Origin: an uncultured Bacilli bacterium
GTDB taxonomy: Bacteria > Bacillota_I > Bacilli_A > RF39 > UBA660
Assembly (NCBI GenBank): GCA_947632205.1
Contig: CANROK010000002.1
Coordinates: 1-62,145, forward strand
Direction of reading: 5' to 3'
DNA: 62,145 bases
This document shows, piece after piece, positions 9,517 through 43,410 of this stretch. Every line of letters begins with the position of its first letter. The first letter of the stretch is position 1. The position numbers were made by a program, and so were the translations under genes. Below the pieces are notes generated by a model, which was not told where the DNA came from, ran no database searches, and saw only the letters and a list, made by a program, of their open reading frames with translations.

Positions 9517-9936
9517 TTAAGCTTTTAAGCGTAATTTTTCAAAAAAATTTTTTAACATTTTTTCATATTGCTCTTTATCATTATTAAAAACATTTGTTTG
9601 TATTTTTTCTAATTTTCCATTTATATTATTTTTTCTCGATAATAAATAATACACTTTTTCTATTCTAGCTTCTTTAATAATATTTTCACACATTAAACAT
9701 GGTTCTAACGTAACGTACATTTCACAATTATTTAAACGCCAATCCTTTATTTTTTTTGATGCTTTTATTATGGCAATAATTTCGGCATGACCTAGCGGAT
9801 TATTACTTTTTTGACGATTGTTGTAACCTTTAGCGATTATTTTATTATTTTTAACAATTATAGCTCCAACCGGTATTTCATTTAATTTGGCTGCTTTTTC
9901 AGCTTGTTTTATTGCTTCTTTAAAAAAATCATTCAT
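9517..9936 (-). CDS. tadA: tRNA adenosine(34) deaminase TadA
   Basis: CDA zinc motifs HAEI and PCLMC. I place the start at the ATG at 9936 (MNDFFKEAIKQA). The tracked 44-aa N-terminal extension overlaps an SRP RNA gene. Confidence 0.88.
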   Translation of the reverse strand: MNDFFKEAIKQAEKAAKLNEIPVGAIIVKNNKIIAKGYNNRQKSNNPLGHAEIIAIIKASKKIKDWRLNNCEMYVTLEPCLMCENIIKEARIEKVYYLLSRKNNINGKLEKIQTNVFNNDKEQYEKMLKNFFEKLRLKA

Positions 9937-9957
9937 ATATCCTCTTATTGTTTCAAA

Positions 9958-10036
9958 AAAAGCACACACAAATAGGGATTGATGTGGCTGCTGTCTTCCA
10001 ACTCTGACCAGGTTACAATATATTTGTTGTGCCAAC
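9958..10036 (-). ncRNA. ffs: small (4.5S-type) signal recognition particle RNA
   Basis: The minus strand reads GGCACAACAAAUAUAUUGUAACCUGGUCAGAGUUGGAAGACAGCAGCCACAUCAAUCCCUAUUUGUGUGUGC followed by a U-run. It contains the domain IV core CCUGGUCAG...GGAA tetraloop...AGCAGCC. The 5' and 3' ends pair (GCACAACAAAUA / UAUUUGUGUGUGC). A -35 TTGTTA / -10 TAAGAT promoter lies upstream. Confidence 0.8.
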
Positions 10037-10079
10037 TTAATCTTATCATATTTTTTATTAATTAACAAGAAAAGTTCAA

Positions 10080-10095
10080 TGTTTCACGTGAAACA
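10080..10095. promoter_or_regulatory. parS consensus site 1 (TGTTTCACGTGAAACA)
   Basis: Exact 16-bp palindromic ParB/Spo0J centromere consensus. Confidence 0.85.
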
Positions 10096-10149
10096 TATCT
10101 TTTAAATTGTTTTATTTTTTACATATTTTATATTATTATGTAAACAAAT

Positions 10150-10165
10150 TATTTCCCGGGAAATA
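10150..10165. promoter_or_regulatory. Noc-binding-site (NBS) consensus 1 (TATTTCCCGGGAAATA)
   Basis: Exact match to the B. subtilis NBS core ATTTCCCGGGAAAT. The palindrome extends to 24 bp (10146-10169). Confidence 0.8.
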
Positions 10166-10251
10166 ATTTTGTGCAAATTATATAAGAATTGGTATAAGCT
10201 TTAATAAAATAATAGATCAAAATATATTTTTATGCAATTCTTTTTTTTAAA

Positions 10252-10267
10252 TGTTTCACGTGAAACA
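10252..10267. promoter_or_regulatory. parS consensus site 2
   Basis: Exact TGTTTCACGTGAAACA, flanked by an A-run and a T-run. Confidence 0.85.
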
Positions 10268-10372
10268 TTTTTGCTTTTTTGATTAATCAAATACTATATA
10301 CTTATTCTCATATTATTATTTAAATTAAATTTTTATATTAATTAACTTTATTAAAATATTATGTAAATTAAT

Positions 10373-10388
10373 TATTTTCTGGAAAATA
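10373..10388. promoter_or_regulatory. degenerate NBS-like site 2 (TATTTTCTGGAAAATA)
   Basis: Same position in the repeat unit as the intact NBS copies. Three mismatches to the 16-mer. Confidence 0.4.
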
Positions 10389-10480
10389 ATTTTGTGCGAA
10401 TTCTTATAAGAATAGGTAGATTTTTAATATACTACAAAAGTTAATATATTCATCTATGCGATTTTTCATAATGTATAATA

Positions 10481-10496
10481 TGTTTCACGTGAAACA
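10481..10496. promoter_or_regulatory. parS consensus site 3
   Basis: Exact TGTTTCACGTGAAACA. Confidence 0.85.
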
Positions 10497-10613
10497 TTAA
10501 TACTTATATAATATTATTATTCAAGTAAATTATTTTTCAACTTTATTAATTATGTTTTTTAAATTTATTAACAAATTATTTGATTTATTTTTTTAAATAT
10601 TATGTAAATCAAA

Positions 10614-10629
10614 TATTTCCCGGGAAATA
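10614..10629. promoter_or_regulatory. NBS consensus 3 (TATTTCCCGGGAAATA)
   Basis: Exact match. The palindrome extends to about 22 bp. Confidence 0.8.
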
Positions 10630-10722
10630 TTTTTTTTGCAAATTCTCTAAGAATTGGTATAAATGTTAATATTAAAATAATAGATCATAATGTTTTTTGT
10701 ATGCAAAACCATTTTTTTAAAA

Positions 10723-10738
10723 TGTTTCACGTGAAACA
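10723..10738. promoter_or_regulatory. parS consensus site 4
   Basis: Exact TGTTTCACGTGAAACA. Confidence 0.85.
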
Positions 10739-10816
10739 TTTTGCATTTTAGATAAATCATATATTTTTTTAATTAATAACCAACAATTAATTTAACTTTA
10801 TTTTATATAAACTAAT

Positions 10817-10832
10817 TATTTTTCATGAAATA
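10817..10832. promoter_or_regulatory. degenerate NBS-like site 4 (TATTTTTCATGAAATA)
   Basis: Same unit position as the intact NBS copies. The central CCCGGG is lost. Confidence 0.35.
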
Positions 10833-10925
10833 ATTAAATACAATTTTATAAGAATCGTTGAATTTTTAACAATGAAATACTACAAAGAACAATATATTCA
10901 CCTATGCGATTTCATAACATTTATA

Positions 10926-10941
10926 TGTTTCACGTGAAACA
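10926..10941. promoter_or_regulatory. parS consensus site 5
   Basis: Exact TGTTTCACGTGAAACA. Confidence 0.85.
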
Positions 10942-11056
10942 TTAATATTTTTATAATAATTATTATTTAAGAAAAATATTTTCTATTTTTCTTAATTATA
11001 TTTTTTGTATTTATTAACAATTATTCACTTTATTTTTAAATATTATGTAAACTAAT

Positions 11057-11072
11057 TATTTCCCGGGAAATA
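11057..11072. promoter_or_regulatory. NBS consensus 5 (TATTTCCCGGGAAATA)
   Basis: Exact match. Confidence 0.8.
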
Positions 11073-11164
11073 TTTTTTTGCAAAATTCTTAAGAATTGGT
11101 ATAAATTTTAATTAAAATAATAGATTATAATGTTTTTTTGTATGCAAAACCATTCTTTTTAAAA

Positions 11165-11180
11165 TGTTTCACGTGAAACA
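11165..11180. promoter_or_regulatory. parS consensus site 6
   Basis: Exact TGTTTCACGTGAAACA. Confidence 0.85.
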
Positions 11181-11291
11181 TTGAATTAATTTTTTAGATT
11201 ATTAATTGTTTTTCTATATAATTTTATTCAAAAATAATTGTTATTAACATTTTGATAATATCAACGTAAATTTGATGTTATGTAAACCAAT

Positions 11292-11307
11292 TATTTCCCG
11301 GGAAATA
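11292..11307. promoter_or_regulatory. NBS consensus 6 (TATTTCCCGGGAAATA)
   Basis: Exact match, about 45 bp from the gyrA stop. Confidence 0.8.
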
Positions 11308-11350
11308 ATTTTGTGCCAAATTTCTAAGATTTGGTAAAAAAAAGAAACAA

Positions 11351-13939
11351 TTAATTTGTTTCTTCAGTATTATTTATATTGTCATCTTCAATATTTTCTT
11401 TTTCAATGTCTACAATACTAACAGTTGCAACTGTTTGAGAGTCACGTAAAGATATTAATCTTAAACCTTGGGTAACTCTTCCTAAAATTGATATTTGATC
11501 TACTGGTAATTTAATTGTTATTCCTGCATTAGTCATTATTACGGCTGCTTTTCCTTCTTCAACAACTTTAGAAGAAACTAATTTTCCATTTTTTTCTGTA
11601 ATATTTAAAGCAAGAACTCCTTTACTACCACGGCGTGTTTGCCTAAAATCACTAACCTTAGTACGTTTTCCATATCCTTTTTCTGTAACTAATAATAACA
11701 TTGATTCTTCATTAGCAACTTCACAACAAATACATGTATTATCAGCATCGCCTAAATTAATACCGCGTACTCCAGTTGCTGTTCTTCCCATAATTCTTAT
11801 TTCATTTTCAGCAAATTTTACCATTCGACCATTACTACTGCCTAATAAAATGACATTATTACCTGTGGTCTTTTTTACAGCGATTAATTCATCATTATTC
11901 TTTAAATTAATACATATTTTACCAGAATTTCTAATATTTTCAAATTCTTTTATATCAGTTCTTTTAACTATACCTTTCTTCGTTGCAAACATTAGATATT
12001 TAGCATCATCATCATTAGTTACTTTAATAATTGTATTAATTTTTTCACCTTTTTCAATTTGAAGAAGATTAATTACAGGAATACCTTTAGATTGTCGACT
12101 AAATTCAGGAATTTCATAACCTTTTAATCGATATACTTTACCTTTATTAGTAAAGAACATTACGTAATCATGAGTTGTAATATTGATTAAATGACTTACA
12201 AAATCTTCATCAGTAGTAGTTAATCCTTTTATGCCGACACCACCACGATTTTGAACTTTAAATGTATCATTTTTAGTTCTCTTAACATATCCTTTATCAG
12301 TAACAATTATCATTGAATCTTCCACAGGAATTAAGGATTCATCTTCAATATAATCTATAGCAGTCATATCAATTGCTGTTCTTCTTTCATCAGCATATTT
12401 ATCTTTAATTTCTAATAATTCTTTTCTTATTATTTCTAATACTTTTTGTTCAGATGCTAAAATGGCTTTTAATTCTTCTATTTCTTTTAATAGAGCATTT
12501 AATTCTTCTTCTATTTTATCTCTTTCTAATCCCGTTAATCTACGTAATTTCAATTCTAAGATAGCATCTGCTTGAACTTCAGATAGTGCAAAACGATTAA
12601 TTAATTTTGTCTTTGCATCAATATCATCTTCAGCATTTTTTATAATATTAACAACTTCATCAATATTATCTTGAGCAATTTTATAACCTTCTAAAATATG
12701 AACTCTTTTTTCATCTTTGGCTAAATCAAATCTTGTTCTTCTAATTATAACTTCTTTTTGATGATCAATATATTTAGAAATTATATCTCTTAAACCAAGT
12801 GTTTTTGGAGTACCATTATCAAGCATTAAGAAAATAATACCATAATTTACTTGGAAAGATGTATGTTTATATAAATTATTTAAAATTACTTGAGCATTAG
12901 CGTCTTTTTTTAAAGTAATAGTTATTTTAACACCATCTTTTAAATCAGTATGATAATCAGTTATACCATCAATAATTTTATCTCTTACTAATTCAGCAAC
13001 TTTTTCTTTTAATTCTTGTGTATTAACACCATAAGGAACTTCCGTAATTACAATTACACTATGGTTATTATGTTCTTCTATACTAGCTCTACTTCTAATT
13101 GTAATTGAACCGCGACCTGTTTCATAAGCTTTTTTTATTCCTGAATTTCCTAAAATTATACCACCAGTAGGAAAATCTGGACCTTTTATATATTGCATTA
13201 AACCAAGCGTATCTATTTCAGGATTATCAATATAGGCAACACATCCATCAATTACTTCACCTAAGTTATGTGGTGGTATATTAGTGGCCATACCTACGGC
13301 AATTCCCATAGATCCATTTACTAAAATATTTGGAAATCTTGATGGTAGAACCTTTGGCTCTTCAAGGGTTTCATCATAATTCGGAGTCATATCAACTGTA
13401 TCTTTATTTATATCTCTTAATAATTCTAAAGATATTTTTGCAAGTCGTGCTTCCGTATAACGATAAGCTGCTGCTCCATCACCTTCAATATTACCAAAGT
13501 TTCCATGGCCATCAACAAGCATATATCTTTGGTTAAAACTTTGAGCTAGACGAACCATAGCTTCATATATTGAAGAATCGCCATGTGGATGATAATGCCC
13601 CATAACATTACCAACAGTTGTTGCAGATTTTCTGTGAGGTTTATCAGGTGTATTTCCCTCTTCATACATAGACCACAAAATACGTCTATGAACTGGCTTT
13701 AAACCATCTCTTAAATCAGGTATTGCTCTTGATGTTATAACACTCATGGAATAGTCTAAAAATGAATCTTTTACTTCATCAACAATGTTATTTTCTTTAT
13801 GAGAATCTCTTTCGTGAAATTCACCGCCAAAATCTGTTTCAGTTACTTCTTCTTCTACTTCTTCTACATTTTTTATATTTTCTGATTCATTTATCGGATT
13901 TTCATTATTATTTGTTTCATTTATATCTTTGTTATCCAT
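11351..13939 (-). CDS. gyrA: DNA gyrase subunit A
   Basis: 862 aa. [32 protein letters not shown] (QRDR) and the active-site YRYTEARL. gyrB-gyrA synteny. Confidence 0.97.
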
Positions 13940-17103: not shown

Positions 17104-17556
17104 TTAAAGCAAATTAGCACTATTTTGATAATTTAATTGATTAAATAATTTTAAATAATTAATTAATATCTTTTCAAAGCTATATTTTGATATTTTAACA
17201 TTAAAAATTATATTATTTACACACTTTATATTTAATAAATTATCTTTTATTTTATAATTTAATATTTTATTTCCTACTATAAATAAGCAATCTTCATCTC
17301 TTAAACCATATATTTGTAATAAAATAATCTTTTTTTCTTCAGAAATTATTATAGGAATTTTATATTTTATATTTAATATATTTTGGGCATATTTTCTTCT
17401 TCCTTCTAAATTACTCCCATATATTAAGCAATTATTATTTAATAATTTTTTTATATTAATGTTGAAAACTATAGTGTTATCAACATTAATTATTTTTATT
17501 TTATTATTATCTTTACAAATAGCCACAGTTTTTTCATTAATTAAATAGTTATTCAT
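17104..17556 (-). CDS. ComK-family competence transcription factor-like protein (short, 150 aa)
   Basis: Core CLIYGSNLEGRRKYAQNILNIKYKIPIIISEEKKIILLQIYGLRDEDCLFI parallels B. subtilis ComK CRFFGSSYAGRKAGTYEVTKISHKPPIMVDPSNQIFLFPTLSSTRPQCGWI (recalled from memory). Confidence 0.6.
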   Translation of the reverse strand: MNNYLINEKTVAICKDNNKIKIINVDNTIVFNINIKKLLNNNCLIYGSNLEGRRKYAQNILNIKYKIPIIISEEKKIILLQIYGLRDEDCLFIVGNKILNYKIKDNLLNIKCVNNIIFNVKISKYSFEKILINYLKLFNQLNYQNSANLL

Positions 17557-18914: not shown

Positions 18915-20273
18915 TTATAACTTTGCTTTTATTTCTTTAATTGTATCATTTAAAGTATTATTAGTTATTAATTCATTTTTAATTTTTTCACAACTAGCTA
19001 CTACTGTAGAATGGTCTCTACCCCCAAATTCTTGGCCAATTTTTAATAAATTTTCTTCTGTTTCTATTCGACAAAGATACATAGCAATATGTCTTGGCCA
19101 GGCAATATTATTACTTCTTTTTTTACTTTTTAAATCTTCAACTGTAATTTTGTAGAAATCTGCTACTACTTTTTGAATATGCGATATTGTATTATCTTGA
19201 TATATGTTAGTTGAAACATAATCTTTTATAGCTTCTATTACAAAATCTAAATTAATTACTTTTGGTCGCATCATCGCGGTATATGCAAGTAATCTATTAA
19301 TTGTTCCAATAATATGTCTTACATCATTTGGACAAGCATTGGCTATATATTCTATTACATCTTTATTAATTTTATTTTTAATACTAGATTTCTCAAGATG
19401 CTGTTTAATAATATCACATCTTAAAGTAAAGTCAGGAGGATAAATATCTACAGGTAATCCCCAAGTAAATCGACTTCGCAGACGATCTTCAATCTTTTTT
19501 AAATCATCAGGACTTCGATCACTAGAAATAATAATTTGCTTATTGGCTTTATATAATGCTTCAAAAGTATGAAAAAATTCTTGTTGAGTACCTTCATTTC
19601 CTACTAAAAATTGAATATCATCTATTAATAAGACATCAACATTACGATATTTATTTTTAAAATTATTAGCATATTCAATTGTTTCTTTACCTTTTTCCTT
19701 TTTAGATATTTCGACATATTCATCTCTAAAATCATTACTTGTGGTATACAATACTTTTTTATTAGAATGTTCATGAATATAATTACCAATTGCATACATT
19801 AAATGGGTTTTTCCAATTCCACTTCTTCCATAAATAAATAATGGATTATTAATAGTACTAGGTGATTGGGCTACATTAATGGCTGATACAAATGCTAATC
19901 TATTCGATTCTCCAACAATAAAATTATCAAAATTCATTCCTGGATCTAAATTAGTATCCCATTCTAATTTAATGTCTTTATTATCTGAATCATTTAAAAC
20001 ATTTAAAATATCATTATTAGTATTAATTTCATCTTCAGTTAAAAAAGTATATTCATAGGTTTTACCTAATAAATTAACTGTAACTTCATCAATTATATCC
20101 ATATATTGTTGTTTTAATAAAGTTTTATGAGCTTGAAGAGGTACTTGAATAATTATTTCATTATCTTTAATATCAATAATTTTTAAATTACTAAACCATA
20201 CAGAATAAGAACCGGCACTAACTTTTTCACTTATTAATGACAGAAATTTTTTAAAAAATTCGTGTGTTTCCAT
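18915..20273 (-). CDS. dnaA: chromosomal replication initiator DnaA
   Basis: Walker A GRSGIGKTHL, DDIQFL box, and C-terminal DNA-binding domain (GGRDHSTVVASCEKI). Confidence 0.97.
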   Translation of the reverse strand: METHEFFKKFLSLISEKVSAGSYSVWFSNLKIIDIKDNEIIIQVPLQAHKTLLKQQYMDIIDEVTVNLLGKTYEYTFLTEDEINTNNDILNVLNDSDNKDIKLEWDTNLDPGMNFDNFIVGESNRLAFVSAINVAQSPSTINNPLFIYGRSGIGKTHLMYAIGNYIHEHSNKKVLYTTSNDFRDEYVEISKKEKGKETIEYANNFKNKYRNVDVLLIDDIQFLVGNEGTQQEFFHTFEALYKANKQIIISSDRSPDDLKKIEDRLRSRFTWGLPVDIYPPDFTLRCDIIKQHLEKSSIKNKINKDVIEYIANACPNDVRHIIGTINRLLAYTAMMRPKVINLDFVIEAIKDYVSTNIYQDNTISHIQKVVADFYKITVEDLKSKKRSNNIAWPRHIAMYLCRIETEENLLKIGQEFGGRDHSTVVASCEKIKNELITNNTLNDTIKEIKAKL

Positions 20274-20646
20274 ACCTCACCCCGCTATCTAAAAATATCT
20301 CAATTTCATTTTAACTTAAATAAAATTATTATACAAGTTAAAATTTTTTTTAACAAACTTTCAACATAACTTTTTTTAGATAAAATCTATAATACACACA
20401 AATTTCAACATTTTCAACATTTTTTTATTAACTTTAAAAAAATGTTTGTTTAAATAATGTTAAAAATGTTAATAAGATAAAAAATTCTCGTTATTTCGGA
20501 CTTTTTAACAAAAAGTTATTAACATTTTTTAAATATATTAAATATTTTATTAACATTAATTATAATAATAAAAATTAAATGTTATTCTAAAAATGATAAT
20601 AACAATTTTATAATTAATTGTTTTTGGCTTTAAAACCTTAAATTTC
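20274..20646. other. oriC part 1 (dnaA-rpmH spacer), AT-rich with repeated DnaA-box-like TTWTYAACA motifs
   Basis: TTTCAACAT occurs three times (20359, 20402, 20411). TTATTAACA or its complement TGTTAATAA occurs at about 20467, 20516 and 20548. All genes switch strand at this point. Confidence 0.65.
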
Positions 20647-20681
20647 TTGACATCATCTATCATTTAATATTATAATAAGAA
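20647..20681 (+). promoter_or_regulatory. sigma-A-type promoter of the rpmH operon
   Basis: TTGACA, then an 18-nt spacer, then TATAAT. Lies about 30 nt upstream of the rpmH RBS. Confidence 0.55.
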
Positions 20682-20709
20682 CGCTAAAAAGAAAGAGGTG
20701 GATTTTAAA

Positions 20710-20832
20710 ATGAAAATAACTTATCAACCAAATAAAAGAAAAAAAGCTAAAACATGTGGATTCTTTGCACGTAAAGGATCAAAAGTTTTAAATGCCAGAA
20801 GAAAGAAAGGGCGTAAGGAATTAACTAAGTAG
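20710..20832 (+). CDS. rpmH: 50S ribosomal protein L34 (40 aa, below the ORF-track cutoff)
   Basis: My translation is MKITYQPNKRKKAKTCGFFARKGSKVLNARRKKGRKELTK. A GAAAGAGGTGG RBS lies upstream. It precedes rnpA as in nearly all bacteria. Confidence 0.9.
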   Translation: MKITYQPNKRKKAKTCGFFARKGSKVLNARRKKGRKELTK

Positions 20833-20853
20833 TTTCTTACGTGTTTTTTTAAT

Positions 20854-22845: not shown

Positions 22846-23484
22846 ATGGATAATTATAGCAAATTAAATGTTGATTTATTAATTGAAAATCCTAAAAATT
22901 TGAAGAAATTTAGAGAAATTGAAAAGAATATAAAAATAGAAGAGGATAATATTTTTAAAATAGATTGTGAATTAATAAAAGTAGAAAAAGATAGAGATGA
23001 AGTTAATAATAAAATATTTAAATTAAAAAATTATAAAAAAAATCATAATAAATTTGTAAGATTTTTATTAGCAATCCATACTTTTATCTTTGTAGGAGGA
23101 TTAGTATGTTTTTATTATATTGCTTCATTTCCTTTAATATATACTTTATTATTTAGTTTAATTCTTCAATTAATTATATTAGTAGGCACTATTCCAAATT
23201 ATAATTATTATATTAAAAATCTTAAAGATAGCACTTATACAAAAGAAGAATTAGAAGATAAATTAAATATCCTTGAGGAAAACAATAAAACTTTAATTAA
23301 TGAGAAGTCAATAAAATTAGCTAATATAGAATCATTAAAAGAAGAAATTCAAAACTTATTAAATCAAGAACAAAAAAATATTTCTAAAGATAGTGTAATT
23401 AGTCAAAAAATTGTGGATATACTTACTTTTGATTATGAATTAAATAATAATTTTGATGAAATGAAATTAAAATTAAAAAAATAA
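22846..23484 (+). CDS. coiled-coil membrane protein, tandem paralog 1 of 3 (unknown function)
   Basis: Shared N-terminus MDNYxKLxxDxLxEN and C-terminus NFDEMKLKLKK. It has a central two-TM hairpin and the KLANIESLKEEIQNLLNQEQ block. Confidence 0.7.
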   Translation: MDNYSKLNVDLLIENPKNLKKFREIEKNIKIEEDNIFKIDCELIKVEKDRDEVNNKIFKLKNYKKNHNKFVRFLLAIHTFIFVGGLVCFYYIASFPLIYTLLFSLILQLIILVGTIPNYNYYIKNLKDSTYTKEELEDKLNILEENNKTLINEKSIKLANIESLKEEIQNLLNQEQKNISKDSVISQKIVDILTFDYELNNNFDEMKLKLKK

Positions 23485-23503
23485 TAAATATCACGGAGGT
23501 TTT

Positions 23504-24184
23504 ATGGATAATTATACAAAATTAAGTATAGATAAATTGCAAGAAAATATAGAGAATCTCAAAAAAATTAGTGATATTAATGCTAATCTAAAGATAGAAG
23601 AAGAAAATATTTCAAAAATAGATAGTGAATTAATAGAAATAAAAAATGATAGAGATAGAATTAATGATAAAATATTTAAATTAAACAATTATAAAAAAAA
23701 TCATAAAAAATTAGTTGAAACTTTATTATTAATCCATGCTTGTGCATTTGTTGGTGGATTAATATTTGTTAATCTTGTTGAAGTTACAGTTTCTGCAGGC
23801 CTATTGCCTTTAAAAGAGAATTTATTTTTTAGTTTACTTCTTCAATTAGTTTTCTTAGCAGCTACTATTCCAAGCTATTTTTGTCTTAAAAAAAATTTTA
23901 AAGATAACACTTATACAAAAGAAGAATTAGAAGATATGATAAAAACTATTGATGAAGATATTAAATCTTTAAAAATTAAAAAAGAACAAAAATTAGCTAA
24001 TATAGAATCTTTAAAAGAAGAAATACAAAACTTATTAAATCAAGAACAAACGAATATTGAAGAAGTTTCAAATATATTAAATGCTAGAGATAATGCTATT
24101 AATCAAAAAATTATGGATATAGATACATTTGATAATAAGTTAAATAGTAATTTTGATACAATGAAATTAAAATTAAAAAAATAA
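23504..24184 (+). CDS. coiled-coil membrane protein, tandem paralog 2 of 3
   Basis: Same architecture as 22846-23484. The RBS and first ~110 nt are nearly identical to paralog 3. Confidence 0.7.
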   Translation: MDNYTKLSIDKLQENIENLKKISDINANLKIEEENISKIDSELIEIKNDRDRINDKIFKLNNYKKNHKKLVETLLLIHACAFVGGLIFVNLVEVTVSAGLLPLKENLFFSLLLQLVFLAATIPSYFCLKKNFKDNTYTKEELEDMIKTIDEDIKSLKIKKEQKLANIESLKEEIQNLLNQEQTNIEEVSNILNARDNAINQKIMDIDTFDNKLNSNFDTMKLKLKK

Positions 24185-24203
24185 TAAATATCACGGAGGT
24201 TTT

Positions 24204-24719
24204 ATGGATAATTATACAAAATTAAGTATAGATAAATTACAAGAAAATATAGAAAATTTCAAAAAAATTAGTGAAATTAATGCTAATATAAAAATAGAAG
24301 AAGAAAGTATTTCATTAATTGATAGTGATTTAAAAAAATTAGAAGAAACTAAAGGAACAACTAGAGAACGTTTATGTAATGCAAGAAATATCGATCTTTT
24401 TAAAATATTTATATTTAGTCTTTCAAGATTATATCCTCAATTAAGTTTGAATGAAATGATTCAAGATCATCTTAAAAATCTTAAAATTGATAATGCAGGA
24501 GAATTGGAAGTAAATTTATATAAAATTGATAAAGAAATTAAATCTTTAACAACTAAAAAAGCACAAAAATTAGCTGATATAGAATCTTTAAAATTAGAAA
24601 TACAAAACTTACTAAATCAAGAACAAAAAAATCTGGAAAACGTAATAAATAGTCTAAATGCTAATGATAATACAATTGATAATAATTTTGATGAAATGAA
24701 ATTAAAATTAGAAAAATAA
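24204..24719 (+). CDS. coiled-coil protein, tandem paralog 3 of 3 (TM hairpin replaced or lost)
   Basis: Conserved N- and C-terminal blocks, but the central hydrophobic hairpin is absent. Confidence 0.6.
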   Translation: MDNYTKLSIDKLQENIENFKKISEINANIKIEEESISLIDSDLKKLEETKGTTRERLCNARNIDLFKIFIFSLSRLYPQLSLNEMIQDHLKNLKIDNAGELEVNLYKIDKEIKSLTTKKAQKLADIESLKLEIQNLLNQEQKNLENVINSLNANDNTIDNNFDEMKLKLEK

Positions 24720-24738
24720 ATATTAAGAGGGTTTGGTT

Positions 24739-25281
24739 ATGTTAGAAAAGGTAAAAAATTACATAAATGATAATTTAATATATGATGATTGTAAAGAAAT
24801 GATTAATTATCATTTAAATTTATATTTATCTTTCTTTTTAAAAGATGATTATATATTAAATAATATTGAATTAAAATATGAAGAGTATCATAAATGTACA
24901 TATGTTTATTTATACTTTGATAATTTTAATGTTGTATTTTGGTTTAGGGAAAGACATTGTTGTTCTGTATCAATTGATTTTATAAATGATAAAATAAGAA
25001 TAAAAAATACTTTATTACCAAAATTTGGTATTCATTTTATAGATAATGATTGTGTATATCAATTTGGTGAAATAACTGTAGTAAAAGATAGTTTATTAGA
25101 TTTTAAAGAACTTAAAGTAGCAAAATATGATTTTAAAAATTCAGTAAATGAATATTTTGATGTTGATCTTCCACTAATAGATGGTGAAAATAATCTTAGT
25201 ATTATTTGCCAAATTATAGATAATATTAAATTAAAATATAAAAATAATTTAGTTAGAAATAGAGAATTAAATAAATTATAA
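24739..25281 (+). CDS. hypothetical protein (about 180 aa, Cys/aromatic-rich, no recognisable motif)
   Basis: Long ORF in the operon. The ATG at 24739 lies behind AAGAGGG, whereas the track begins at a TTG at 24733. Confidence 0.55.
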   Translation: MLEKVKNYINDNLIYDDCKEMINYHLNLYLSFFLKDDYILNNIELKYEEYHKCTYVYLYFDNFNVVFWFRERHCCSVSIDFINDKIRIKNTLLPKFGIHFIDNDCVYQFGEITVVKDSLLDFKELKVAKYDFKNSVNEYFDVDLPLIDGENNLSIICQIIDNIKLKYKNNLVRNRELNKL

Positions 25282-29313: not shown

Positions 29314-30309
29314 ATGAGTGTGAAAACAGAATCACAAGTTTTAAATATACCTATTGAAGATATTATACCTAATCGTTTTCAACCACGATTAAATTTTGAC
29401 GACTCATCTTTAAATGAATTAGCAAGCTCGATCAAAGAACATGGCATTATTCAACCTCTTGTTGTAAGAAAGCTTGGTGAAAAATTTGAAATAATCGCTG
29501 GCGAAAGAAGATATAAAGCTGCTAAGTTAGCAGGACTTACCTCAGTTCCAGCCGTTGTTACCGAAATGTCTGATGAAAAAAGTGCCCAAGCAGCAATAGT
29601 TGAAAATGTTCAAAGAAAAGATTTATCCGCTATTGAAGAAGCTAAATCTTATGAAAGTTTATTAGAAAAAGGGTATTTAACTCAAGAAGACCTTGCTAAA
29701 AAAATGGGGCTAAGTCAATCGGCTATTTCAAATAAATTAAGATTATTATCATTATCTAATGAAGTTCAAAAGGCCTTAATGGAAAACAAAATATCTGAAA
29801 GACATGCTAGAAGTTTATTACAGATAAAAGATCAAGATGAACAAAATACATGGTTAAAAAAAATATTAGATGAAAGGATGACAGTCAAAGAACTTGATAA
29901 TAGACTGAAAGAGAGTATGAATAATAATATTAATAGTAATGATGTTCCTTTAGTTAATTTAAATGAAGAAAAGAAAATAAATGATAAAAAAGATATATTT
30001 AGTGATTTAAATATTGAAGAAAAACCAATTCCTAATAAATTCTTTAATTTCTTAGAAGATGAAGAAGCTAATATGAGTACTAATGATAAAATTAATGAAA
30101 CTTTTACTTTACCTATTAATGAAGCAAATGATGATGTTGAAATGTTAGATTTTGTCCCTGAAAGTGCTAAAATTACTAAAGATATGAGTATTGCTAATAG
30201 TTTAATAGAAAAGCTAAAAGAAGATTTGAATCTTAACAATTATGAAATTAATGTTTTAACTGATGAATCAGATAATGAAATTAAATATATTATAACTATA
30301 AAAAAATAA
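29314..30309 (+). CDS. noc: ParB/Noc-family protein with a Noc-like DNA-recognition helix and a long acidic/Asn-rich C-terminal extension
   Basis: It has the ParB box GERRYKAAKLAG and IIPNRFQPR. The HTH region GLSQSAISNKLRLL...ISERHARSLL resembles B. subtilis Noc (GQSTIANKLRLL...ITERHARAL) more than Spo0J (SRPHIANHLRLL...SMGHGRTLL), comparing from memory. Its position after rsmG equals that of noc. No soj/spo0J follows. Confidence 0.7.
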   Translation: MSVKTESQVLNIPIEDIIPNRFQPRLNFDDSSLNELASSIKEHGIIQPLVVRKLGEKFEIIAGERRYKAAKLAGLTSVPAVVTEMSDEKSAQAAIVENVQRKDLSAIEEAKSYESLLEKGYLTQEDLAKKMGLSQSAISNKLRLLSLSNEVQKALMENKISERHARSLLQIKDQDEQNTWLKKILDERMTVKELDNRLKESMNNNINSNDVPLVNLNEEKKINDKKDIFSDLNIEEKPIPNKFFNFLEDEEANMSTNDKINETFTLPINEANDDVEMLDFVPESAKITKDMSIANSLIEKLKEDLNLNNYEINVLTDESDNEIKYIITIKK

Positions 30310-30741: not shown

Positions 30742-32325
30742 ATGAAAAAGAATTTATTAGTTGGGTTTATTACCTTATTATTTATTTTAGTTTTTTATTA
30801 TCTGGTTTTACCACCACTTAATATAACTAGCCCATTGTTTTGGTTTTATATTTTTACCGTTTCTATCTTTTATTATGTAATATCGTTGTTTTTAAAAAAT
30901 ATGTTTGAAAGAAATAGAATATTTAAATTTGATAAAATACATACTATTTTACCTGTAATTTTAGGAGTAATATTAATAGTTATTGTTATTACTAATATTG
31001 TATGTTCACCAATATTTAATGCTAAAAAGTATAGCGAAAGAATAAAAGTATCTGAAAATCATGAATTTGTTACAGATGTAGCTCCCGTTGATTTTACAAA
31101 GACACCACTTATTGATAAAGATAGTAGTGAAAAACTTGGTGATCGGAAGATGGGTGAATTTACAACTTGGGTTAGTCAATTTTATGTTAGTGATTTATAT
31201 ACACAAATTAATTATAATAATGAAATTATTAGAGTAACTCCTTTAGAATATGCGGGGATAATTAAATATTTTGCTAATAGAGATGAAGGAGTAAAAGGAT
31301 ATATTAAAGTAAATTCAGTTGATGGTTCATCTAGTTTAGTAACGCTTCAAAAAGGTATGAAATATTTACCTAGTGCTTATTTTTTTGAAAATTTATATCG
31401 TAAATTAAGAATTAGTTATCCAACAACTATTTTTGATGAAGAAACTTTTGAAATTGATAATGAAGGTAATCCTTACTGGATAGTACCTACCATTAAATAT
31501 ACTGGTGTAGGTTTAAAAAAAGAAATAACGGGTGCAGTTATTCTAGATCCCATAACTGGTGAAAGTAAAAAATATAAGAAAGAAGATATACCAACATGGG
31601 TAGATCATTTGTATAGTGCTGATTTAATTATTGAACAAATTGATAACTGGGGTGAATATCGTAATGGTTTCTTTAACTCTATGTTTGGTCAAAAAGATGT
31701 AATTAATACGACCGATGGTTATAATTATTTAGTTATGGATGATGATGTTTATTTATATACAGGTATAACATCTGTATCTAGTGATGAATCTAATTTGGGC
31801 TTTGTCTTAGTTAATTTAAGAACAAAAGAAACTAATTATTATTTATGTCCAGGTGCTGAAGAATATAGTGCTATGGCTTCTGCTGAGGGACTTGTTCAAG
31901 AAAAAGAATATGAAGCATCATTCCCATTATTAATTAATTTAAATAATAAACCAACATATTTATTAAGTTTAAAAGATAATGCTGGTTTAGTAAAAATGTA
32001 TGCTTTTATTGATGTCGCTGACTATCAAAAAGTAGTAGTAAGTGATGCCTCATTAGGTATAGAAGCTGCTAAAGAAAAATATTTAAGTGAAAATAATTCA
32101 GTTGATGAAAGTAATTTAAAAACTAAAGAAATAACAATTAAAAAAATTACAAATGCAGTTATTGATAGTAATACAATGTATTATATAACTGATACTGATA
32201 ATAATTTATATTATGTAGATATTAAAGTAAATAAATACTTATTACCATTCTTAAGTATAAATGATAAAATAAATATTAGTTATAGTGAAGGAGAAATATC
32301 ACAAATTAGAAGTATAACTAAATAA
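30742..32325 (+). CDS. hypothetical membrane protein (three N-terminal TM helices plus a large extracytoplasmic domain)
   Basis: 527-aa ORF with a hydrophobic N-terminus. No motif recognised. Confidence 0.6.
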   Translation: MKKNLLVGFITLLFILVFYYLVLPPLNITSPLFWFYIFTVSIFYYVISLFLKNMFERNRIFKFDKIHTILPVILGVILIVIVITNIVCSPIFNAKKYSERIKVSENHEFVTDVAPVDFTKTPLIDKDSSEKLGDRKMGEFTTWVSQFYVSDLYTQINYNNEIIRVTPLEYAGIIKYFANRDEGVKGYIKVNSVDGSSSLVTLQKGMKYLPSAYFFENLYRKLRISYPTTIFDEETFEIDNEGNPYWIVPTIKYTGVGLKKEITGAVILDPITGESKKYKKEDIPTWVDHLYSADLIIEQIDNWGEYRNGFFNSMFGQKDVINTTDGYNYLVMDDDVYLYTGITSVSSDESNLGFVLVNLRTKETNYYLCPGAEEYSAMASAEGLVQEKEYEASFPLLINLNNKPTYLLSLKDNAGLVKMYAFIDVADYQKVVVSDASLGIEAAKEKYLSENNSVDESNLKTKEITIKKITNAVIDSNTMYYITDTDNNLYYVDIKVNKYLLPFLSINDKINISYSEGEISQIRSITK

Positions 32326-33471: not shown

Positions 33472-34404
33472 ATGCCAAGTATTAAAGACCCATTAAATGA
33501 CGAACTAAATATTAATAGTTTTGAGTTAGAATTTGATGATAAAGAGAATGGAATAATTGCTCTAACAACAGAGAATGTTCAAAAAGTAGAAACAATGCTA
33601 AGATATAATCCTGATTATCCTCAATTTATTGACTTAAAAAATTTAAATAAAGAAACTAAATTTGAAGGTTATTTAGACGAAAAATATAAAGAGGAATTAG
33701 GAAAACATTTAAAAGATAATAATACAAAAGTTGAAGATTTAATAGAAATATATAAAAAATATAATGATATAAAAAATATAAAGTATGAGTATTCATCAGT
33801 TTATTATATAAAAGCTTTAAAAAAATATAAAACACATGAAGATAATAAATATATGTATCCATATTTAATACTTTTAATCTTAAGAAAAATAAATAGTGAA
33901 AATAGTACTCGGGTTTCATTAAATGACATAGGTAAAATAGCATGTAAAATTGTGGATAAATATAGTGATTATGATAAATTAGCTGATGCTTTAAAAGAAC
34001 CAAGTAAAAATTCTGAAGAATGTAATTATGAGTTAATTAAAATTTTTTGTGAAGGATTACAAAAAAGATATTTATCTTTAGCAACAAAATTTTGTCATTA
34101 TGTAAGTTTTGTCCTTTTCTATGATACGGATGATAAAGATGATTGTGATGCCAAATACGCCGATTTATATTCTATTTATGATGAAGTTGTTAATAGTAGC
34201 TTAAAAAAATATACTGATAAATATAATATTGAATTTGAAAAAAAGGAATTAACAAATTTAAAAGATTGGGATGAAATTCTTGATTATTATCGTAAATATC
34301 AGGAAGTAATTAAAAAAGTTATAGAAAGTTATGGAAAAGGTTCAAAAATAATTAGTAGGAATGGTTTTGATCATTTAATTTGGTATAGTAATAAAAAAGG
34401 TTAA
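33472..34404 (+). CDS. hypothetical protein (310 aa) on a direct-repeat-flanked cassette
   Basis: Has its own AAAGGAG RBS. It is flanked by 25-bp direct repeats at 33425-33449 and 34403-34427. No confident motif. Confidence 0.6.
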   Translation: MPSIKDPLNDELNINSFELEFDDKENGIIALTTENVQKVETMLRYNPDYPQFIDLKNLNKETKFEGYLDEKYKEELGKHLKDNNTKVEDLIEIYKKYNDIKNIKYEYSSVYYIKALKKYKTHEDNKYMYPYLILLILRKINSENSTRVSLNDIGKIACKIVDKYSDYDKLADALKEPSKNSEECNYELIKIFCEGLQKRYLSLATKFCHYVSFVLFYDTDDKDDCDAKYADLYSIYDEVVNSSLKKYTDKYNIEFEKKELTNLKDWDEILDYYRKYQEVIKKVIESYGKGSKIISRNGFDHLIWYSNKKG

Positions 34405-37943: not shown

Positions 37944-38057
37944 TTTATTAACATAATTTGACGTCACTTATCATTATTTGCTATAGATTTTTGTCAAATA
38001 ATCTTCTATAATGATAAACATGTGCAGTACAAGAATATTATTTTAAAGGAGAAAAAC

Positions 38058-38819
38058 ATGAAATCAAGTATTAATGTTTTAGTCATTGATAATGATATAA
38101 CAATGACTAAAGAGATTGAGAAGTATTTTGGTAGTCATGAAGTAATTAAAGTAGTAGCTTGTGTTAATAATGGAGAAGAGGGCTTACAATATATTATTAA
38201 TAATTCTAAAGATATTGATATGATTGTAATGGATTTAATTTTACCTAAATTAGATGGTTTATTTGTTCTTGGAGAATTAAAAAGAAGAAAAATTGATAAG
38301 AAGGTAATAATAACTACTAATTTAAGAGATGATAAAATATTAGAAGAAACTAATAAATATGGAATAGATTATTATATGTTAAAGCCAATAAGTTATTTAA
38401 GTTTAGAAAGAAGAATAATGTCAATAGATTTTAATAGTAATAATAAAAATAATAAACAATTTAATCAAGAAGCGGTTTTAACAGAATTATTACATAATTT
38501 AGGTATACCATCTCATATAAGAGGATATCAATATATAAGAGAAGGTATTCAAATTGTTTATCGTAGTAATAATTTTATAACTTATATAACAAAAGATGTT
38601 TATCCAGAAATTGCTAAAAAATTTAATACAACTCCAACTAGAGTAGAAAGAGCTATAAGACATGCAATAGAAGTAAGTTGGACTAGAGGCGATATATCAT
38701 TAATGGAAGATATCTTTGGTAATAGTTTAAATGTTAATAGAGATAAACCAACCAATTCAGAATTTTTAACTACACTTGCTGATAGATTAAAAGTAAATAA
38801 TAATCTTATTTTTAACTGA
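38058..38819 (+). CDS. spo0A: sporulation master response regulator Spo0A
   Basis: REC domain (VLVIDND, MDLILPKLDG) plus the Spo0A-specific C-domain (GIPSHIRGYQYIREGI, TPTRVERAIRHAIEVSWTRGD, KPTNSEFLTTLADRL). I place the start at the ATG at 38058 behind AAGGAG. Confidence 0.93.
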   Translation: MKSSINVLVIDNDITMTKEIEKYFGSHEVIKVVACVNNGEEGLQYIINNSKDIDMIVMDLILPKLDGLFVLGELKRRKIDKKVIITTNLRDDKILEETNKYGIDYYMLKPISYLSLERRIMSIDFNSNNKNNKQFNQEAVLTELLHNLGIPSHIRGYQYIREGIQIVYRSNNFITYITKDVYPEIAKKFNTTPTRVERAIRHAIEVSWTRGDISLMEDIFGNSLNVNRDKPTNSEFLTTLADRLKVNNNLIFN

Positions 38820-38904: not shown

Positions 38905-39576
38905 ATGGATGAACGTAGCCGTAAATTAATTTTACCAATGTTAGTTGCTATTGTTACATTAGGTTTACTTGTTATTGGTGCCACATTTGCATATATTAGA
39001 GTTGGAACAGATACTACTTATGGTACAAACACTATTAAAACTAGTATTCCCTTAACAGGAAGTGCTTCAATAACTTCTGGGACTTCTATTTCTATGACTT
39101 TAACATACGATCAAGTAACAAATAATTCTTCTGAACAAACATATTATGCTACTTCATCTGGACCTAATACGAATCCAAATACTCAACAAATAGCCACAAT
39201 TCAAGGTTTAATTGGAACAGTAGATTGTACATACACTTTAAATGTTAAAGGTAGTCCTGCAGATATGGCAAAAAATGCGGTTGGTTTAGGTCAAGATTTA
39301 TTTGTTTTAACAATACAACATTTTGATGGAAGTGGTAGTGAACATACTGATACTTTCGATTTTCATAATTCTTACACTGGAAGTAATCAAATAAATTCTG
39401 AAACAGGTGTTAATTTAACTGGTAAAGTTACAGGTATATCTGCATCTAATACCAAGAATATTTATGCTCAATTAAAATATAAAAATAGTCCAAGTGTTGA
39501 TCAATCAAAGTTAGCAAATACAAGTGCGACTTTTACTTTTACAGTAACACAATTCCATTGTACACCATCTGCGTAA
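38905..39576 (+). CDS. exported or signal-anchored Thr/Ser/Asn-rich protein, paralog 1 of 4
   Basis: N-terminal KLILPMLVAIVTLGLLVIGATFAYI hydrophobic segment. Conserved YYATSSGP, CTYTLNVKG and C-terminal TFTVTQFHCT blocks. Has its own promoter-like TTGATT-17-TATACT. Confidence 0.7.
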   Translation: MDERSRKLILPMLVAIVTLGLLVIGATFAYIRVGTDTTYGTNTIKTSIPLTGSASITSGTSISMTLTYDQVTNNSSEQTYYATSSGPNTNPNTQQIATIQGLIGTVDCTYTLNVKGSPADMAKNAVGLGQDLFVLTIQHFDGSGSEHTDTFDFHNSYTGSNQINSETGVNLTGKVTGISASNTKNIYAQLKYKNSPSVDQSKLANTSATFTFTVTQFHCTPSA

Positions 39577-39682
39577 AACCATTACTTTTTTTTTACATTA
39601 AATTATGAAAACTTGGAATATTTATTGACTAAATTTTTATATTAAGATAAAATTATATTAGATAGTAGGAGGATTTTTTAGT

Positions 39683-40315
39683 ATGATAAATAAAAAAATT
39701 ATTGTTCCTACATTAGTAGCGATAGCTACTATGCTTTTATTAGTTGTAGGTGCAACATATGCATATATATTAGTCCAAAGTAATGACAATTTTGATAATC
39801 TTTTAGTTACTAGTAAAATTGATGAAGTTGGTACTGTAACAATTAATAAAACTGCTGAATTAAATTTAAATTTAGTATATGCTCAAGTTTCTAAACCAGA
39901 TCAAGATACTATTTATTATGCTACAACTTCAGGACCTACTACTGAAGAGCAATCACCAATTATAGCTACGGCAACTGTTACTGGTCCTGGTGTCTATAAT
40001 TGTAGCTATAATTTATTTGTAACTGCACAAGGTGATATTTTTAATAATTCTGTAAATAAAGGAACTGGTTTTTTACAATTAACTGTTAATGGAGGTATTA
40101 ATGGGAATACACCAGATGTACATGATTTTAATACCTCATGGAGTGATAAAAATGTAACTGGTACTTTGACAGATATTAGTGCAAATTCTCCAAAAAATAT
40201 AACAGCTCAATTATTCTTTAAAAATAGTTCAACGGTTGATCAATATGCATTAAGTGGGACAAATGGAACGGTTACTTTTAGCATAACTTCATTTGAGTGT
40301 ACCGCAACTAGTTAG
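39683..40315 (+). CDS. exported or signal-anchored protein, paralog 2 of 4
   Basis: Same architecture (GATYAYI, YYATTSGP, CSYNLFV, FSITSFECTATS). TTGACT-17-TAAAAT lies upstream. Confidence 0.7.
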   Translation: MINKKIIVPTLVAIATMLLLVVGATYAYILVQSNDNFDNLLVTSKIDEVGTVTINKTAELNLNLVYAQVSKPDQDTIYYATTSGPTTEEQSPIIATATVTGPGVYNCSYNLFVTAQGDIFNNSVNKGTGFLQLTVNGGINGNTPDVHDFNTSWSDKNVTGTLTDISANSPKNITAQLFFKNSSTVDQYALSGTNGTVTFSITSFECTATS

Positions 40316-40333
40316 AAAATAGCGGAGGATAAT

Positions 40334-41029
40334 ATGGATTATAATAATATTGACCCAGATAATGTTACAAAAAATAATAATAATAAAAAATTAATTTTGC
40401 CAATGGCTGTTGCTATAACTACCCTTATTATTTTATCGCTAGGCGCAACATATGCGTACATTCAAGTACAAACTACAAATAATTTTGGTGAGCCAACAAT
40501 TTCAGGAACAGTTCCTTCCATTGGTAATGTTACTATGAATGCTGGAACTAGTTTATCTCTTTCTGTATCAAGACCACAAATGATGAAGGATAATCCAGCA
40601 ACATATTATGCAACTTCAGGTGGTATGAGTACTACTTCAGCAGATATGCAAACTATTGCGACTGCAACAGTTTCGGGAGAAGGCGTATTTACTTGTACTT
40701 ATATACTTAACGTAAAAGGAGAAGGCACTTTGTTAACTAATTCTTGGCGTTTAGGAAATAATCTTGTAACTCTTGAAATCAGTAGTAGTTCAAATGGTAA
40801 TATTAATCAAACGTATGATTTTAATGATGATTTAAATAGTACAGTTTTAAGTCCAAATGGTACAAATATAAGTGGACAATTTACTGGACTTTCAATTTCT
40901 CAACTAGGAACAATTTATGCTAGGTTTAAATTAACTAATAGCCAAGATAAAGATCAATCAGAATTAAATAATACATCAGGAACAATTACATTTACTGTAT
41001 CTAATTTAAATTGTACTGCAACTGGTTAA
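40334..41029 (+). CDS. exported or signal-anchored protein, paralog 3 of 4
   Basis: Same architecture. Judged by eye, more than half of its residues are identical to paralog 4. Confidence 0.7.
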   Translation: MDYNNIDPDNVTKNNNNKKLILPMAVAITTLIILSLGATYAYIQVQTTNNFGEPTISGTVPSIGNVTMNAGTSLSLSVSRPQMMKDNPATYYATSGGMSTTSADMQTIATATVSGEGVFTCTYILNVKGEGTLLTNSWRLGNNLVTLEISSSSNGNINQTYDFNDDLNSTVLSPNGTNISGQFTGLSISQLGTIYARFKLTNSQDKDQSELNNTSGTITFTVSNLNCTATG

Positions 41030-41048
41030 AATAATATAAGGAGGATAT

Positions 41049-43348: not shown

Positions 43349-43410
43349 TGCTTGTTAAATATTTAAAAATAATGTAATATATATTATATAGATAGAGGTT
43401 AGTGTGTTAT

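Follow-up and report, generated by a model that had tools for sequence, protein, structure and literature searches.

A tandem array of interleaved parS and Noc-binding sites near the replication origin of uncultured gut Bacilli, a candidate composite centromere

We analyzed a 62,145-bp stretch of DNA (the window) which is the origin region of a genome of the Bacilli type (about 25% G+C), and describe a non-coding tandem array located between gyrA and ffs. In this array, exact copies of parS, the loading site of ParB/Spo0J, are interleaved with exact copies of the Noc-binding site (NBS), and arrays of the same two palindromes are found at one syntenic locus in related genomes. We consider it probable, at roughly 0.6, that the array is an origin-proximal composite chromosomal centromere onto which two paralogous cytidine triphosphate (CTP) clamps load. 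The data suggest that ParB and a Noc-type clamp act together at one centromere. The features of the array, none of which is assigned to a strand, are the following:

10069..11350, non-coding tandem array in which a super-repeat of about 442 bp with two sub-units is present about 2.5 times; it holds six parS and six NBS, of which four are intact and two decayed
10080..10095, parS 1, exact 16-mer, 37 bp upstream of the 5' end of ffs
10150..10165, NBS 1, exact
10252..10267, parS 2, exact
10373..10388, decayed NBS TATTTTCTGGAAAATA, three mismatches
10481..10496, parS 3, exact
10614..10629, NBS 2, exact
10723..10738, parS 4, exact
10817..10832, decayed NBS TATTTTTCATGAAATA, four mismatches, from direct reading and unit alignment
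10926..10941, parS 5, exact
11057..11072, NBS 3, exact
11165..11180, parS 6, exact
11292..11307, NBS 4, exact, 44 bp beyond the gyrA stop codon

All six parS sites are exact copies of the 16-mer TGTTTCACGTGAAACA, which matches the palindrome TGTTNCACGTGAAACA, and each of them extends to ATGTTTCACGTGAAACAT. No seventh copy was found in the 62,145-bp window at up to two mismatches, the chance expectation being 0.02. The NBS 16-mer TATTTCCCGGGAAATA is present in four exact copies, all of which are located inside the array and none elsewhere in the window. Both 16-mers are identical to the parS and NBS of a study of ParB/Noc specificity (PMC7383237), in agreement with the identification of the motifs in a previous reading of this DNA made from the letters alone (the sequence-only reading). 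Site scans and direct reading likewise recovered the six exact parS, four exact NBS and two decayed NBS that this reading had placed in the gap, and all of its spacings were correct on re-measurement: the centre distance from an NBS to the next parS is 102, 108, 109, 109 and 108 bp, and that from a parS to the next NBS is 70, 121, 133, 94, 131 and 127 bp. The super-repeat, which it had estimated to about 440-465 bp, is real by both repeat-family detection and unit alignment, with a length of 440-468 bp (about 442 bp) and two sub-unit types, and the flank motifs TTATGTAAAC and GAATTGGTATAA that it had described are present around the NBS of the window. The gap between gyrA and ffs (1.28 kb) contains no open reading frame (ORF) longer than 37 amino acids and has no Rfam match except ffs. 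Since the repeat units of 220-440 bp exceed the read length, the copy number of the array in this short-read assembly is uncertain; no independent assembly of the array was found in a lookup of the exact TadA and Noc-type products or in a metagenome scan with the lineage-specific flank and NBS.

The distribution of such arrays was examined in two scans. In the first, one genome from each of 185,579 species was searched for an exact NBS and an exact parS separated by 75-105 bases, which yielded 101 stretches for a chance expectation of about 2e-6 (32-base specification). The hosts were all metagenome-assembled genomes; apart from a few mislabelled bins, they carry the labels uncultured Bacilli, Tenericutes, Mollicutes or Erysipelotrichaceae. 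When the gyrA-tadA regions of these genomes were compared, as the sequence-only reading had proposed, all 101 loci proved to be syntenic in tblastn searches with the window proteins, and all carried the sites between gyrA and tadA/dnaX. The identity of GyrA to that of the window ranged from 54 to 91% across these loci, and the lineage is therefore deep. In the second scan, which was directed at metagenome contigs and used a spacing of 6-36 bases, at least 120 contigs matched; gyrA, tadA or dnaX is located beside the sites in 116 of the 120 that were listed, and the remaining four, of 1-2 kb, consist of an array only. Among the matches listed from both scans (221 assemblies), all 217 loci with an identifiable gene adjoin gyrA, tadA or dnaX, and none is placed in another genomic context or in any well-studied organism. 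The hosts are uncultured, AT-rich gut Bacilli, whose labels and gene content (class A penicillin-binding protein (PBP), SpoIIR, Spo0A) are compatible with the uncultured orders RF39, RFN20 or ML615J-28 (PMC10868615). Examples of array-bearing genomes are GCA_017466775.1 and GCA_947589435.1, and the long contigs with an array include CAKOQD010000001.1 and JAZQNW010000001.1. Two array-bearing metagenome contigs, L166 and L221, have G+C contents of 0.38 and 0.48, as compared to 0.19-0.31 for the rest, and may be chimeric assemblies.

The recurrence of the array at the gyrA/tadA/dnaX locus in 221 assemblies indicates that it is real and selected. It also bears on the possibility that the array is a selfish or meaningless repeat, or an artefact of the assembly. 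Tandem repeats that exceed the read length are easily misassembled, copy numbers from short reads are uncertain, and 33 of 102 arrays reach the end of a contig or locus. However, the same two exact palindromes are found at one syntenic locus in independent assemblies and have no copies elsewhere in the 62 kb window, for which reason we regard this explanation as extremely improbable and also rejected a dispersed repeat, such as a miniature inverted-repeat transposable element.

What is conserved within the arrays is limited to the palindromes. Per array, the medians are 3 exact parS (range 1-9), 2 exact NBS (range 1-7) and a span of 654 bp. The tandem units are 84 bp in 5.8 copies (L012), 76 bp in 6.3 copies (L014), 136 bp in 3.6 copies (L057), 129 bp in 6.4 copies (L085), 75/299 bp (L022), 260 bp with three parS and one NBS in 2.7 copies (L051) and about 442 bp (the window). 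Thus, unit length ranges from 75 to 442 bp across genomes, and the order of the sites and the sequences of the spacers differ, with both motifs present in every unit; by these sequence comparisons, unrelated units have been amplified independently in different genomes. Even the closest relative (L093), with a GyrA protein that is 91% identical, has another order of sites and spacers that cannot be aligned to those of the window. Lineage-wide logos retain only the extended palindromes, A-parS-T (92-97%) and AAAT-NBS-ATTT (66-94%), in a background of A/T, and a census of 9-mers in 217 arrays revealed no third shared motif: the shared 9-mers were runs of A/T, sequences close to the palindromes or parts of ffs. 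Of 272 NBS, only 29 have the motif TATGT[AC]AA next to them, towards ffs in 22 cases and towards gyrA in 7. There was no cluster of DnaA boxes, the box TTATCCACA being present in 11 of the 217 arrays. A process of tandem duplication and decay would renew the array, with selection retaining only the two palindromes.

The sequence-only reading had noted a nearly fixed NBS-parS spacing of about 108 bp and conserved flanks. Across the lineage, neighboring parS and NBS are 22 to about 140 bp apart, no single distance being dominant, and a fixed parS-NBS geometry was rejected. Because the lineage keeps the palindromes only, the spacing of about 108 bp and the flanks TTATGTAAAC and GAATTGGTATAA are no features of design but traces of recent duplication in this genome and its near relatives. 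The same comparison speaks against a reading in which the block flanking the NBS is a promoter and the A/T-flanked parS a terminator, so that the array would produce repeated small RNAs. The block contains TTGCAA-N16-TATAAA, with TG upstream, just after each intact NBS of the window, and runs of A and T flank each parS, but promoter-like sites numbered 27 for an expectation of 19.4 +/- 4.6 and no terminator was called. Moreover, the block is found neither in the closest relative nor in the lineage-wide logos, the spacers are unrelated between genomes and there is no match in Rfam. In view of the missing enrichment, terminators, conservation and Rfam matches we rejected a promoter/terminator or small-RNA function as very improbable.

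The order of the sites can be summarized as 330 parS-NBS, 132 parS-parS and 33 NBS-NBS neighbor pairs. Such strong interleaving would also fit an antagonistic arrangement, in which Noc-type dimers bound to NBS serve as roadblocks or insulators that confine the ParB clamps to the array and keep them off gyrA and ffs, or the reverse; the array would then be a competition or boundary element, which the sequence-only reading had also suggested. Highly expressed genes bound the arrays, parS 1 is located in the promoter region of ffs, and in the RK2 plasmid a site-bound KorA or TrbA stops and locks a ParB-family clamp (PMC11790492, PMC13584720), which may serve as an analogy. On the other hand, site order and spacing are highly variable, with consecutive runs of parS (PP, PPP) and of NBS (NN), whereas a designed insulator would more likely flank the parS cluster, and mutual blocking of clamps by nucleated ParB-family dimers is without support. 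We therefore consider antagonism to be unlikely.

The two palindromes are sharply separated. parS and NBS are two discrete SPECIFICITIES that differ at two half-site positions, with G in parS and A in NBS at position 2, and A and C, respectively, at position 7. In 222 sequences (1.52 Mb), the 1,280 sites of the form TNTTTCNCGNGAAANA comprised 715 pure parS, 558 pure NBS, no symmetric hybrids, one chimera of an NBS half and a parS half, and six other singletons. The 124 parS variants with one mismatch were changed mostly at half-site positions 1 (53 variants) and 5 (55 variants, mostly T to C), and only once each at positions 2 and 7. The classical parS consensus TGTTNCACGTGAAACA captures the tolerance at positions 1 and 5. 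For the NBS, 53 of the 73 variants with one mismatch represent a C to T change at the central CpG. The parS sites are placed in the intergenic regions of the arrays (366 sites) or at the edge of gyrA (3 sites), and nowhere else. In contrast to parS, a few NBS are found outside the arrays in relatives, 18 in dnaX, two in ybaB and, in one relative, one between comK and dnaN; this last site is exact, is located at locus position 772 and was seen in three assemblies (L102-L104). The exact NBS inside dnaX, at about amino acids 320-365 (L003, L005, L007, L011, L013, L017, L024, L025, L037, L048, L052, L058, L061, L062, L063, L079, L098 and L101), are in a constant frame in all 18 relatives and encode (I/N)-I-S-R-E-I in a poorly conserved linker, using the rare codon CGG. 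From the sequences this looks like selection on the DNA motif within the gene. The dnaX gene of the window has no NBS.

A candidate for the protein that binds to the NBS is encoded in the window itself:

29314..30309, (+) strand, gene for a Noc-type CTP clamp of the ParB family, directly after rsmG; 331 amino acids, ParB_N and HTH_ParB domains, specificity residues Q-K-S-R

The protein matches the Pfam domains ParB_N (1.2e-34) and HTH_ParB (2.5e-32) and has an intact CTP motif, GERRYKA (GERRxRA box). Its best match in NCBIfam is Noc (TIGR04285), at 273.2 bits and thus below the cut-off of 315, with positions 1-196 of the 255 in the profile aligned. Sequence matches to the PDB were to Noc (1.4e-57) and then to Spo0J (1.4e-50). 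An AlphaFold model, with a mean predicted local distance difference test (pLDDT) score of 73 and with confident N-terminal and DNA-binding domains, is most similar to Noc structures, and the DNA-binding domain could be superimposed on that of the Noc-NBS complex 6y93 with a template modelling (TM) score of 0.87 and a root-mean-square deviation (rmsd) of 1.4-1.9 Å. The specificity residues are Q173, K179, S184 and R201. It has been shown that Q173 reads the A and R201 the C of the NBS, given one lysine at position 179 or 184, while proteins that bind to parS keep an invariant R173 (PMC7383237). Given these NBS-type residues, Q-K-S-R, the Noc-type protein is predicted to bind to NBS and not to parS. 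All of the best 120 homologues have Q-K-x-R, and among the best 150 representatives of clusters at 50% identity there were 139 with Q-x-x-R, 131 of which have K179, the remaining 11 falling outside the search pattern.

These residues, together with the census of sites, bear on a third alternative, in which the canonical ParB and ParA have been lost and the Noc-type protein alone, or an unrelated factor, reads both palindromes. A single protein of dual specificity had been put forward in the sequence-only reading, and is in line with the finding of a single ParB-family gene in every context examined, with the loss of soj/spo0J from the ancestral position and with the existence of dual-specificity ParB variants obtained in the laboratory (PMC7383237). 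These variants, however, mostly have T or S at position 201 and bind more weakly (PMC7383237), whereas all of the 259 readable family members have R201 and Q173. Furthermore, a relaxed specificity should tolerate mixed sites, yet the census gave no symmetric hybrids and only the one chimera, the spectrum of parS variants matches the tolerance of a classical ParB, and Noc of Bacillus subtilis does not load on parS DNA (PMC8429893). Because of the missing hybrids among the 1,280 sites and the NBS-type residues, a single reader of both sites is disfavored, and we consider it distinctly unlikely.

The Noc-type protein is no textbook Noc. The sequence-only reading had pointed to a ParB protein at this position. 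It belongs to the ParB family and has Noc-type residues, but it starts 7 residues before the conserved core and the N-terminal amphipathic helix (in B. subtilis MKHSFSRFFGLGEK...) is absent. This helix is conserved in the Noc proteins examined and required for their function (PMC4331003), but was found in none of 338 family members. The ParA-binding motif [LFI]G[KR]G[LFI], as defined previously (PMC12704722), was also found in none of the 338. Family members have a total length of 227-821 amino acids, with a disordered tail of variable length that contains the invariant IPNKFFNFLEDE, in the family form IPNKFFNFLEDExxNM. In the window this tail motif, IPNKFFNFLEDEEANM, corresponds to positions 30028-30075 (residues 239-254) and is predicted by AlphaFold to be helical. 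Its hydrophobic moment of 0.59 is the highest outside the folded domains, with 0.42-0.47 for the Noc helix, and it resembles the N-terminal helix of Noc (SFSRFFGLGEKE; KFFNFLEDE versus RFFGLGEKE), which we take as a lead only. From its sequence, it could be a membrane-targeting or partner-binding motif that has been relocated. It is followed by a further conserved motif, EIEMLDF, and by the small C-terminal domain (30184-30306), which consists of one helix and a beta-hairpin in the AlphaFold model. The gene is located directly downstream of rsmG in the window and in three relatives, and in a fourth relative four unknown genes are placed in between.

Under the hypothesis of a composite centromere, parS would load the canonical ParB/Spo0J and NBS the Noc-type paralogue encoded after rsmG. 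Since both clamps slide from their loading sites, as has been observed for ParB-family clamps (PMC8429893), and since the sites are interleaved within about 0.1-1.7 kb, both would be concentrated on the same oriC-side DNA, where a single mixed nucleoprotein complex could arise. The tail and C-terminal domain of the Noc-type protein would then link the centromere to the membrane or to a partner, rather than mediate nucleoid occlusion spread along the arms; such a link is probable because the Noc helix has been lost and an amphipathic tail motif and a C-terminal domain are present instead. In B. subtilis, Spo0J and Noc jointly control the timing of Z-ring formation (PMC6852036), and in Staphylococcus aureus Noc has a role in the control of replication (PMC5540599), which makes a combined origin-proximal complex plausible. 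A more specific version, which we put forward tentatively and think somewhat doubtful, is that ParB clamps and the helix-less Noc paralogue physically cooperate in a mixed partition complex, by heterotypic contacts or mutual trapping, and that the tail (NKFFNFLEDE plus the C-terminal domain) anchors the origin, either at the membrane or on a factor of division or replication, or, alternatively, that a dual-clamp centromere segregates the chromosome without ParA.

Several observations weigh against a composite centromere. Firstly, a search for canonical spo0J/parB and soj/parA in the window and the related loci found none: neither a canonical ParB (R173/G201) nor ParA was present among the ORFs of the window scanned with Pfam or NCBIfam, no ParA-type Walker A motif was present in a six-frame translation of the window, and no ParA or canonical ParB was found beside the 221 arrays, in about 1.5 Mb of flanking sequence (tblastn at all 221 loci with the Noc-type protein, and at the 120 metagenome loci also with B. 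subtilis Spo0J, without matches). In four distinct relatives, too, no ParA or second ParB lies within 10 kb of the noc-type gene, which is followed by unrelated genes both there and in the window. The ancestral Firmicute origin cluster holds parA, parB and noc together (PMC8136486), and the rsmG-noc-soj-spo0J neighborhood is broken in this lineage. Secondly, since the related loci were chosen for one NBS-parS pair, the selection itself accounts in part for the presence of both motifs in all loci, but not for their common position in the genome, their multiple copies or their independent amplification. Thirdly, the variable spacing of parS and NBS speaks against a fixed protein-protein geometry and would fit coexistence of the clamps as well as cooperation.

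Because the conservation of parS in the scanned regions is perfect and ParB-like, we infer that a canonical ParB is likely to be encoded elsewhere in these genomes. The homologue searches, covering the best 120 matches to the window protein, the best 150 cluster representatives and the best 120 matches to a distant family member, yielded members of the Q..R family throughout and never reached proteins of the Spo0J type.

The genes and intergenic regions surrounding the array in the window are:

11351..13939, (-) strand, gyrA, conserved neighbor to the right of the array, found in all related loci that include this side
9948..10043, (-) strand, ffs, small signal recognition particle RNA, left-hand neighbor of the array
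9517..9945, (-) strand, tadA, conserved neighbor; some relatives have array sites on both its sides
20274..20853, no strand, intergenic region between dnaA and rpmH with the sign change in GC skew, presumed oriC, 8.9 kb from the array
18915..20273, (-) strand, dnaA

The GC skew switches sign between dnaA and rnpA, near 20 kb, which places the array about 9 kb from oriC. Gene calls and GC skew thereby support the setting given in the sequence-only reading, beside gyrA, ffs and tadA and near oriC. The gene order of the left arm is dnaA-dnaN-comK-recF-gyrB-gyrA-[array]-ffs-tadA-dnaX-ybaB-recR, and that of the right arm is rnpA-yidC-jag-mnmE-mnmG-rsmG, followed by one ParB-family gene. The parS 1 site, 37 bp upstream of ffs, is located in the likely promoter of this gene, and clamp loading there could affect its transcription. 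On the other side of the array, an A/T-rich hairpin on the (-) strand (11335-11363; AGAAACAA / TTGTTTCT, with a loop of 5 nt) overlaps the gyrA stop codon and is followed by eight T; it is probably the gyrA terminator, missed by the terminator scan because its stem has too few G-C pairs. A mechanically called ORF of 183 amino acids with a TTG start (9517-10068, (-) strand) crosses ffs, and the true start of tadA is most likely the ATG at 9945, giving a product of 142 amino acids. The exact-start products of tadA and of the Noc-type gene (331 amino acids) have no database record, and a Noc-type version of 329 amino acids is on record.

A ComK-family gene (17104-17556, (-) strand) is located between dnaN and recF, as also in L102-L104 and L106. 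Two runs of four consecutive ORFs of 171-231 amino acids without a Pfam match were identified, at 22846-25281 and 38905-41744 (both on the (+) strand), one of which separates jag from mnmE in an origin gene cluster that is conserved otherwise. Three further ORFs, at 30742-32325 (527 amino acids), 33472-34404 (310 amino acids) and 43402-45120 (572 amino acids), have no family match. Spo0A (38022-38819, (+) strand), SpoVT (155-661, (-) strand) and ComK are encoded in the window, although the genome is small and AT-rich, and genes for SpoIIR and a class A PBP adjoin the noc-type gene in relatives. Given the presence of Spo0A, SpoVT, SpoIIR and the class A PBP, the lineage is probably walled and at least partly spore-forming.

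The array shares features with several known systems. As in the parS/Spo0J system of B. subtilis, the sites consist of the same 16-bp palindrome, with the same tolerated variant TGTTCCACGTGAAACA, and are origin-proximal. However, the parS sites of B. subtilis are single, dispersed over hundreds of kb and often located in genes, whereas here one to nine copies are collected in one non-coding tandem array at a fixed locus, mixed with NBS. Likewise, the NBS 16-mer is the same as that of the Noc system of B. subtilis and S. aureus, a ParB-family CTPase with Noc-type residues is encoded after rsmG, and there are some additional scattered NBS, in dnaX and between comK and dnaN. The differences are that the NBS are concentrated in the centromere array, not only scattered along the chromosome arms, and that the protein scores below the NCBIfam cut-off and lacks the N-terminal helix that is essential in Noc (PMC4331003). 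The protein also contains NKFFNFLEDE in a long disordered tail, and its small C-terminal domain is distinct.

The sequence-only reading had called the array plasmid-centromere-like. This is apt for the layout, since plasmid arrays such as sopC of F are also composed of tandem direct repeats that each contain a site for the partition protein, as is the array of the window. The P1 parS, moreover, combines two motif classes (box types). But the region here is the chromosomal dnaA-gyrA-dnaX region, and because no parAB operon lies nearby the label is limited to the layout. Also, the plasmid two-box centromeres serve one ParB, whereas here there are two full palindromes for two paralogues. In RK2, the ParB-family clamp KorB depends on a second site-bound protein, KorA or TrbA (PMC11790492, PMC13584720); the partner in that case is an unrelated repressor that acts in plasmid gene silencing, while the array described here would bring together two clamps of the ParB family at a centromere of the chromosome. 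Several parS near oriC are known from Caulobacter, Pseudomonas and Myxococcus (PMC5815017, PMC4368675, PMC3778016); those parS are spread over kilobases and separated by genes, and the clusters are not known to include tandem repeats or sites for a second paralogue. The sequence-only reading knew of no interdigitated array of parS and NBS, and we also found no description of one in the literature searched, whose incomplete coverage makes this no more than an absence of evidence. The two motifs and the fold of the protein are of known kinds. New are a fixed-locus, non-coding, rapidly renewed tandem array as a probable chromosomal centromere in a Firmicute lineage, the obligatory mixing of parS and NBS within the array, and the associated Noc-type paralogue without the defining membrane helix and with a new conserved tail.

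ParB and Noc are the textbook example of a DNA-binding protein that was duplicated and changed its target site and its job, and they have been described as acting at separate places, ParB at parS near the origin and Noc at NBS along the chromosome arms. The gut lineage studied here packs both target sites into one fast-renewed array at the oriC side and encodes a Noc-type protein without the helix. If both clamps load onto the array, it would provide a natural system in which to study cooperation, blocking or trapping between paralogous CTP clamps, the evolution of the Noc function from that of ParB, and the coupling of segregation, division control and perhaps replication control at a single locus. 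The compact natural units, for example those of 75-136 bp with one parS and one NBS, are well suited for in vitro loading assays. Should the mixed complex be true, these bacteria would represent a living example of a duplicated ParB that has switched its DNA specificity and still works at the centromere.

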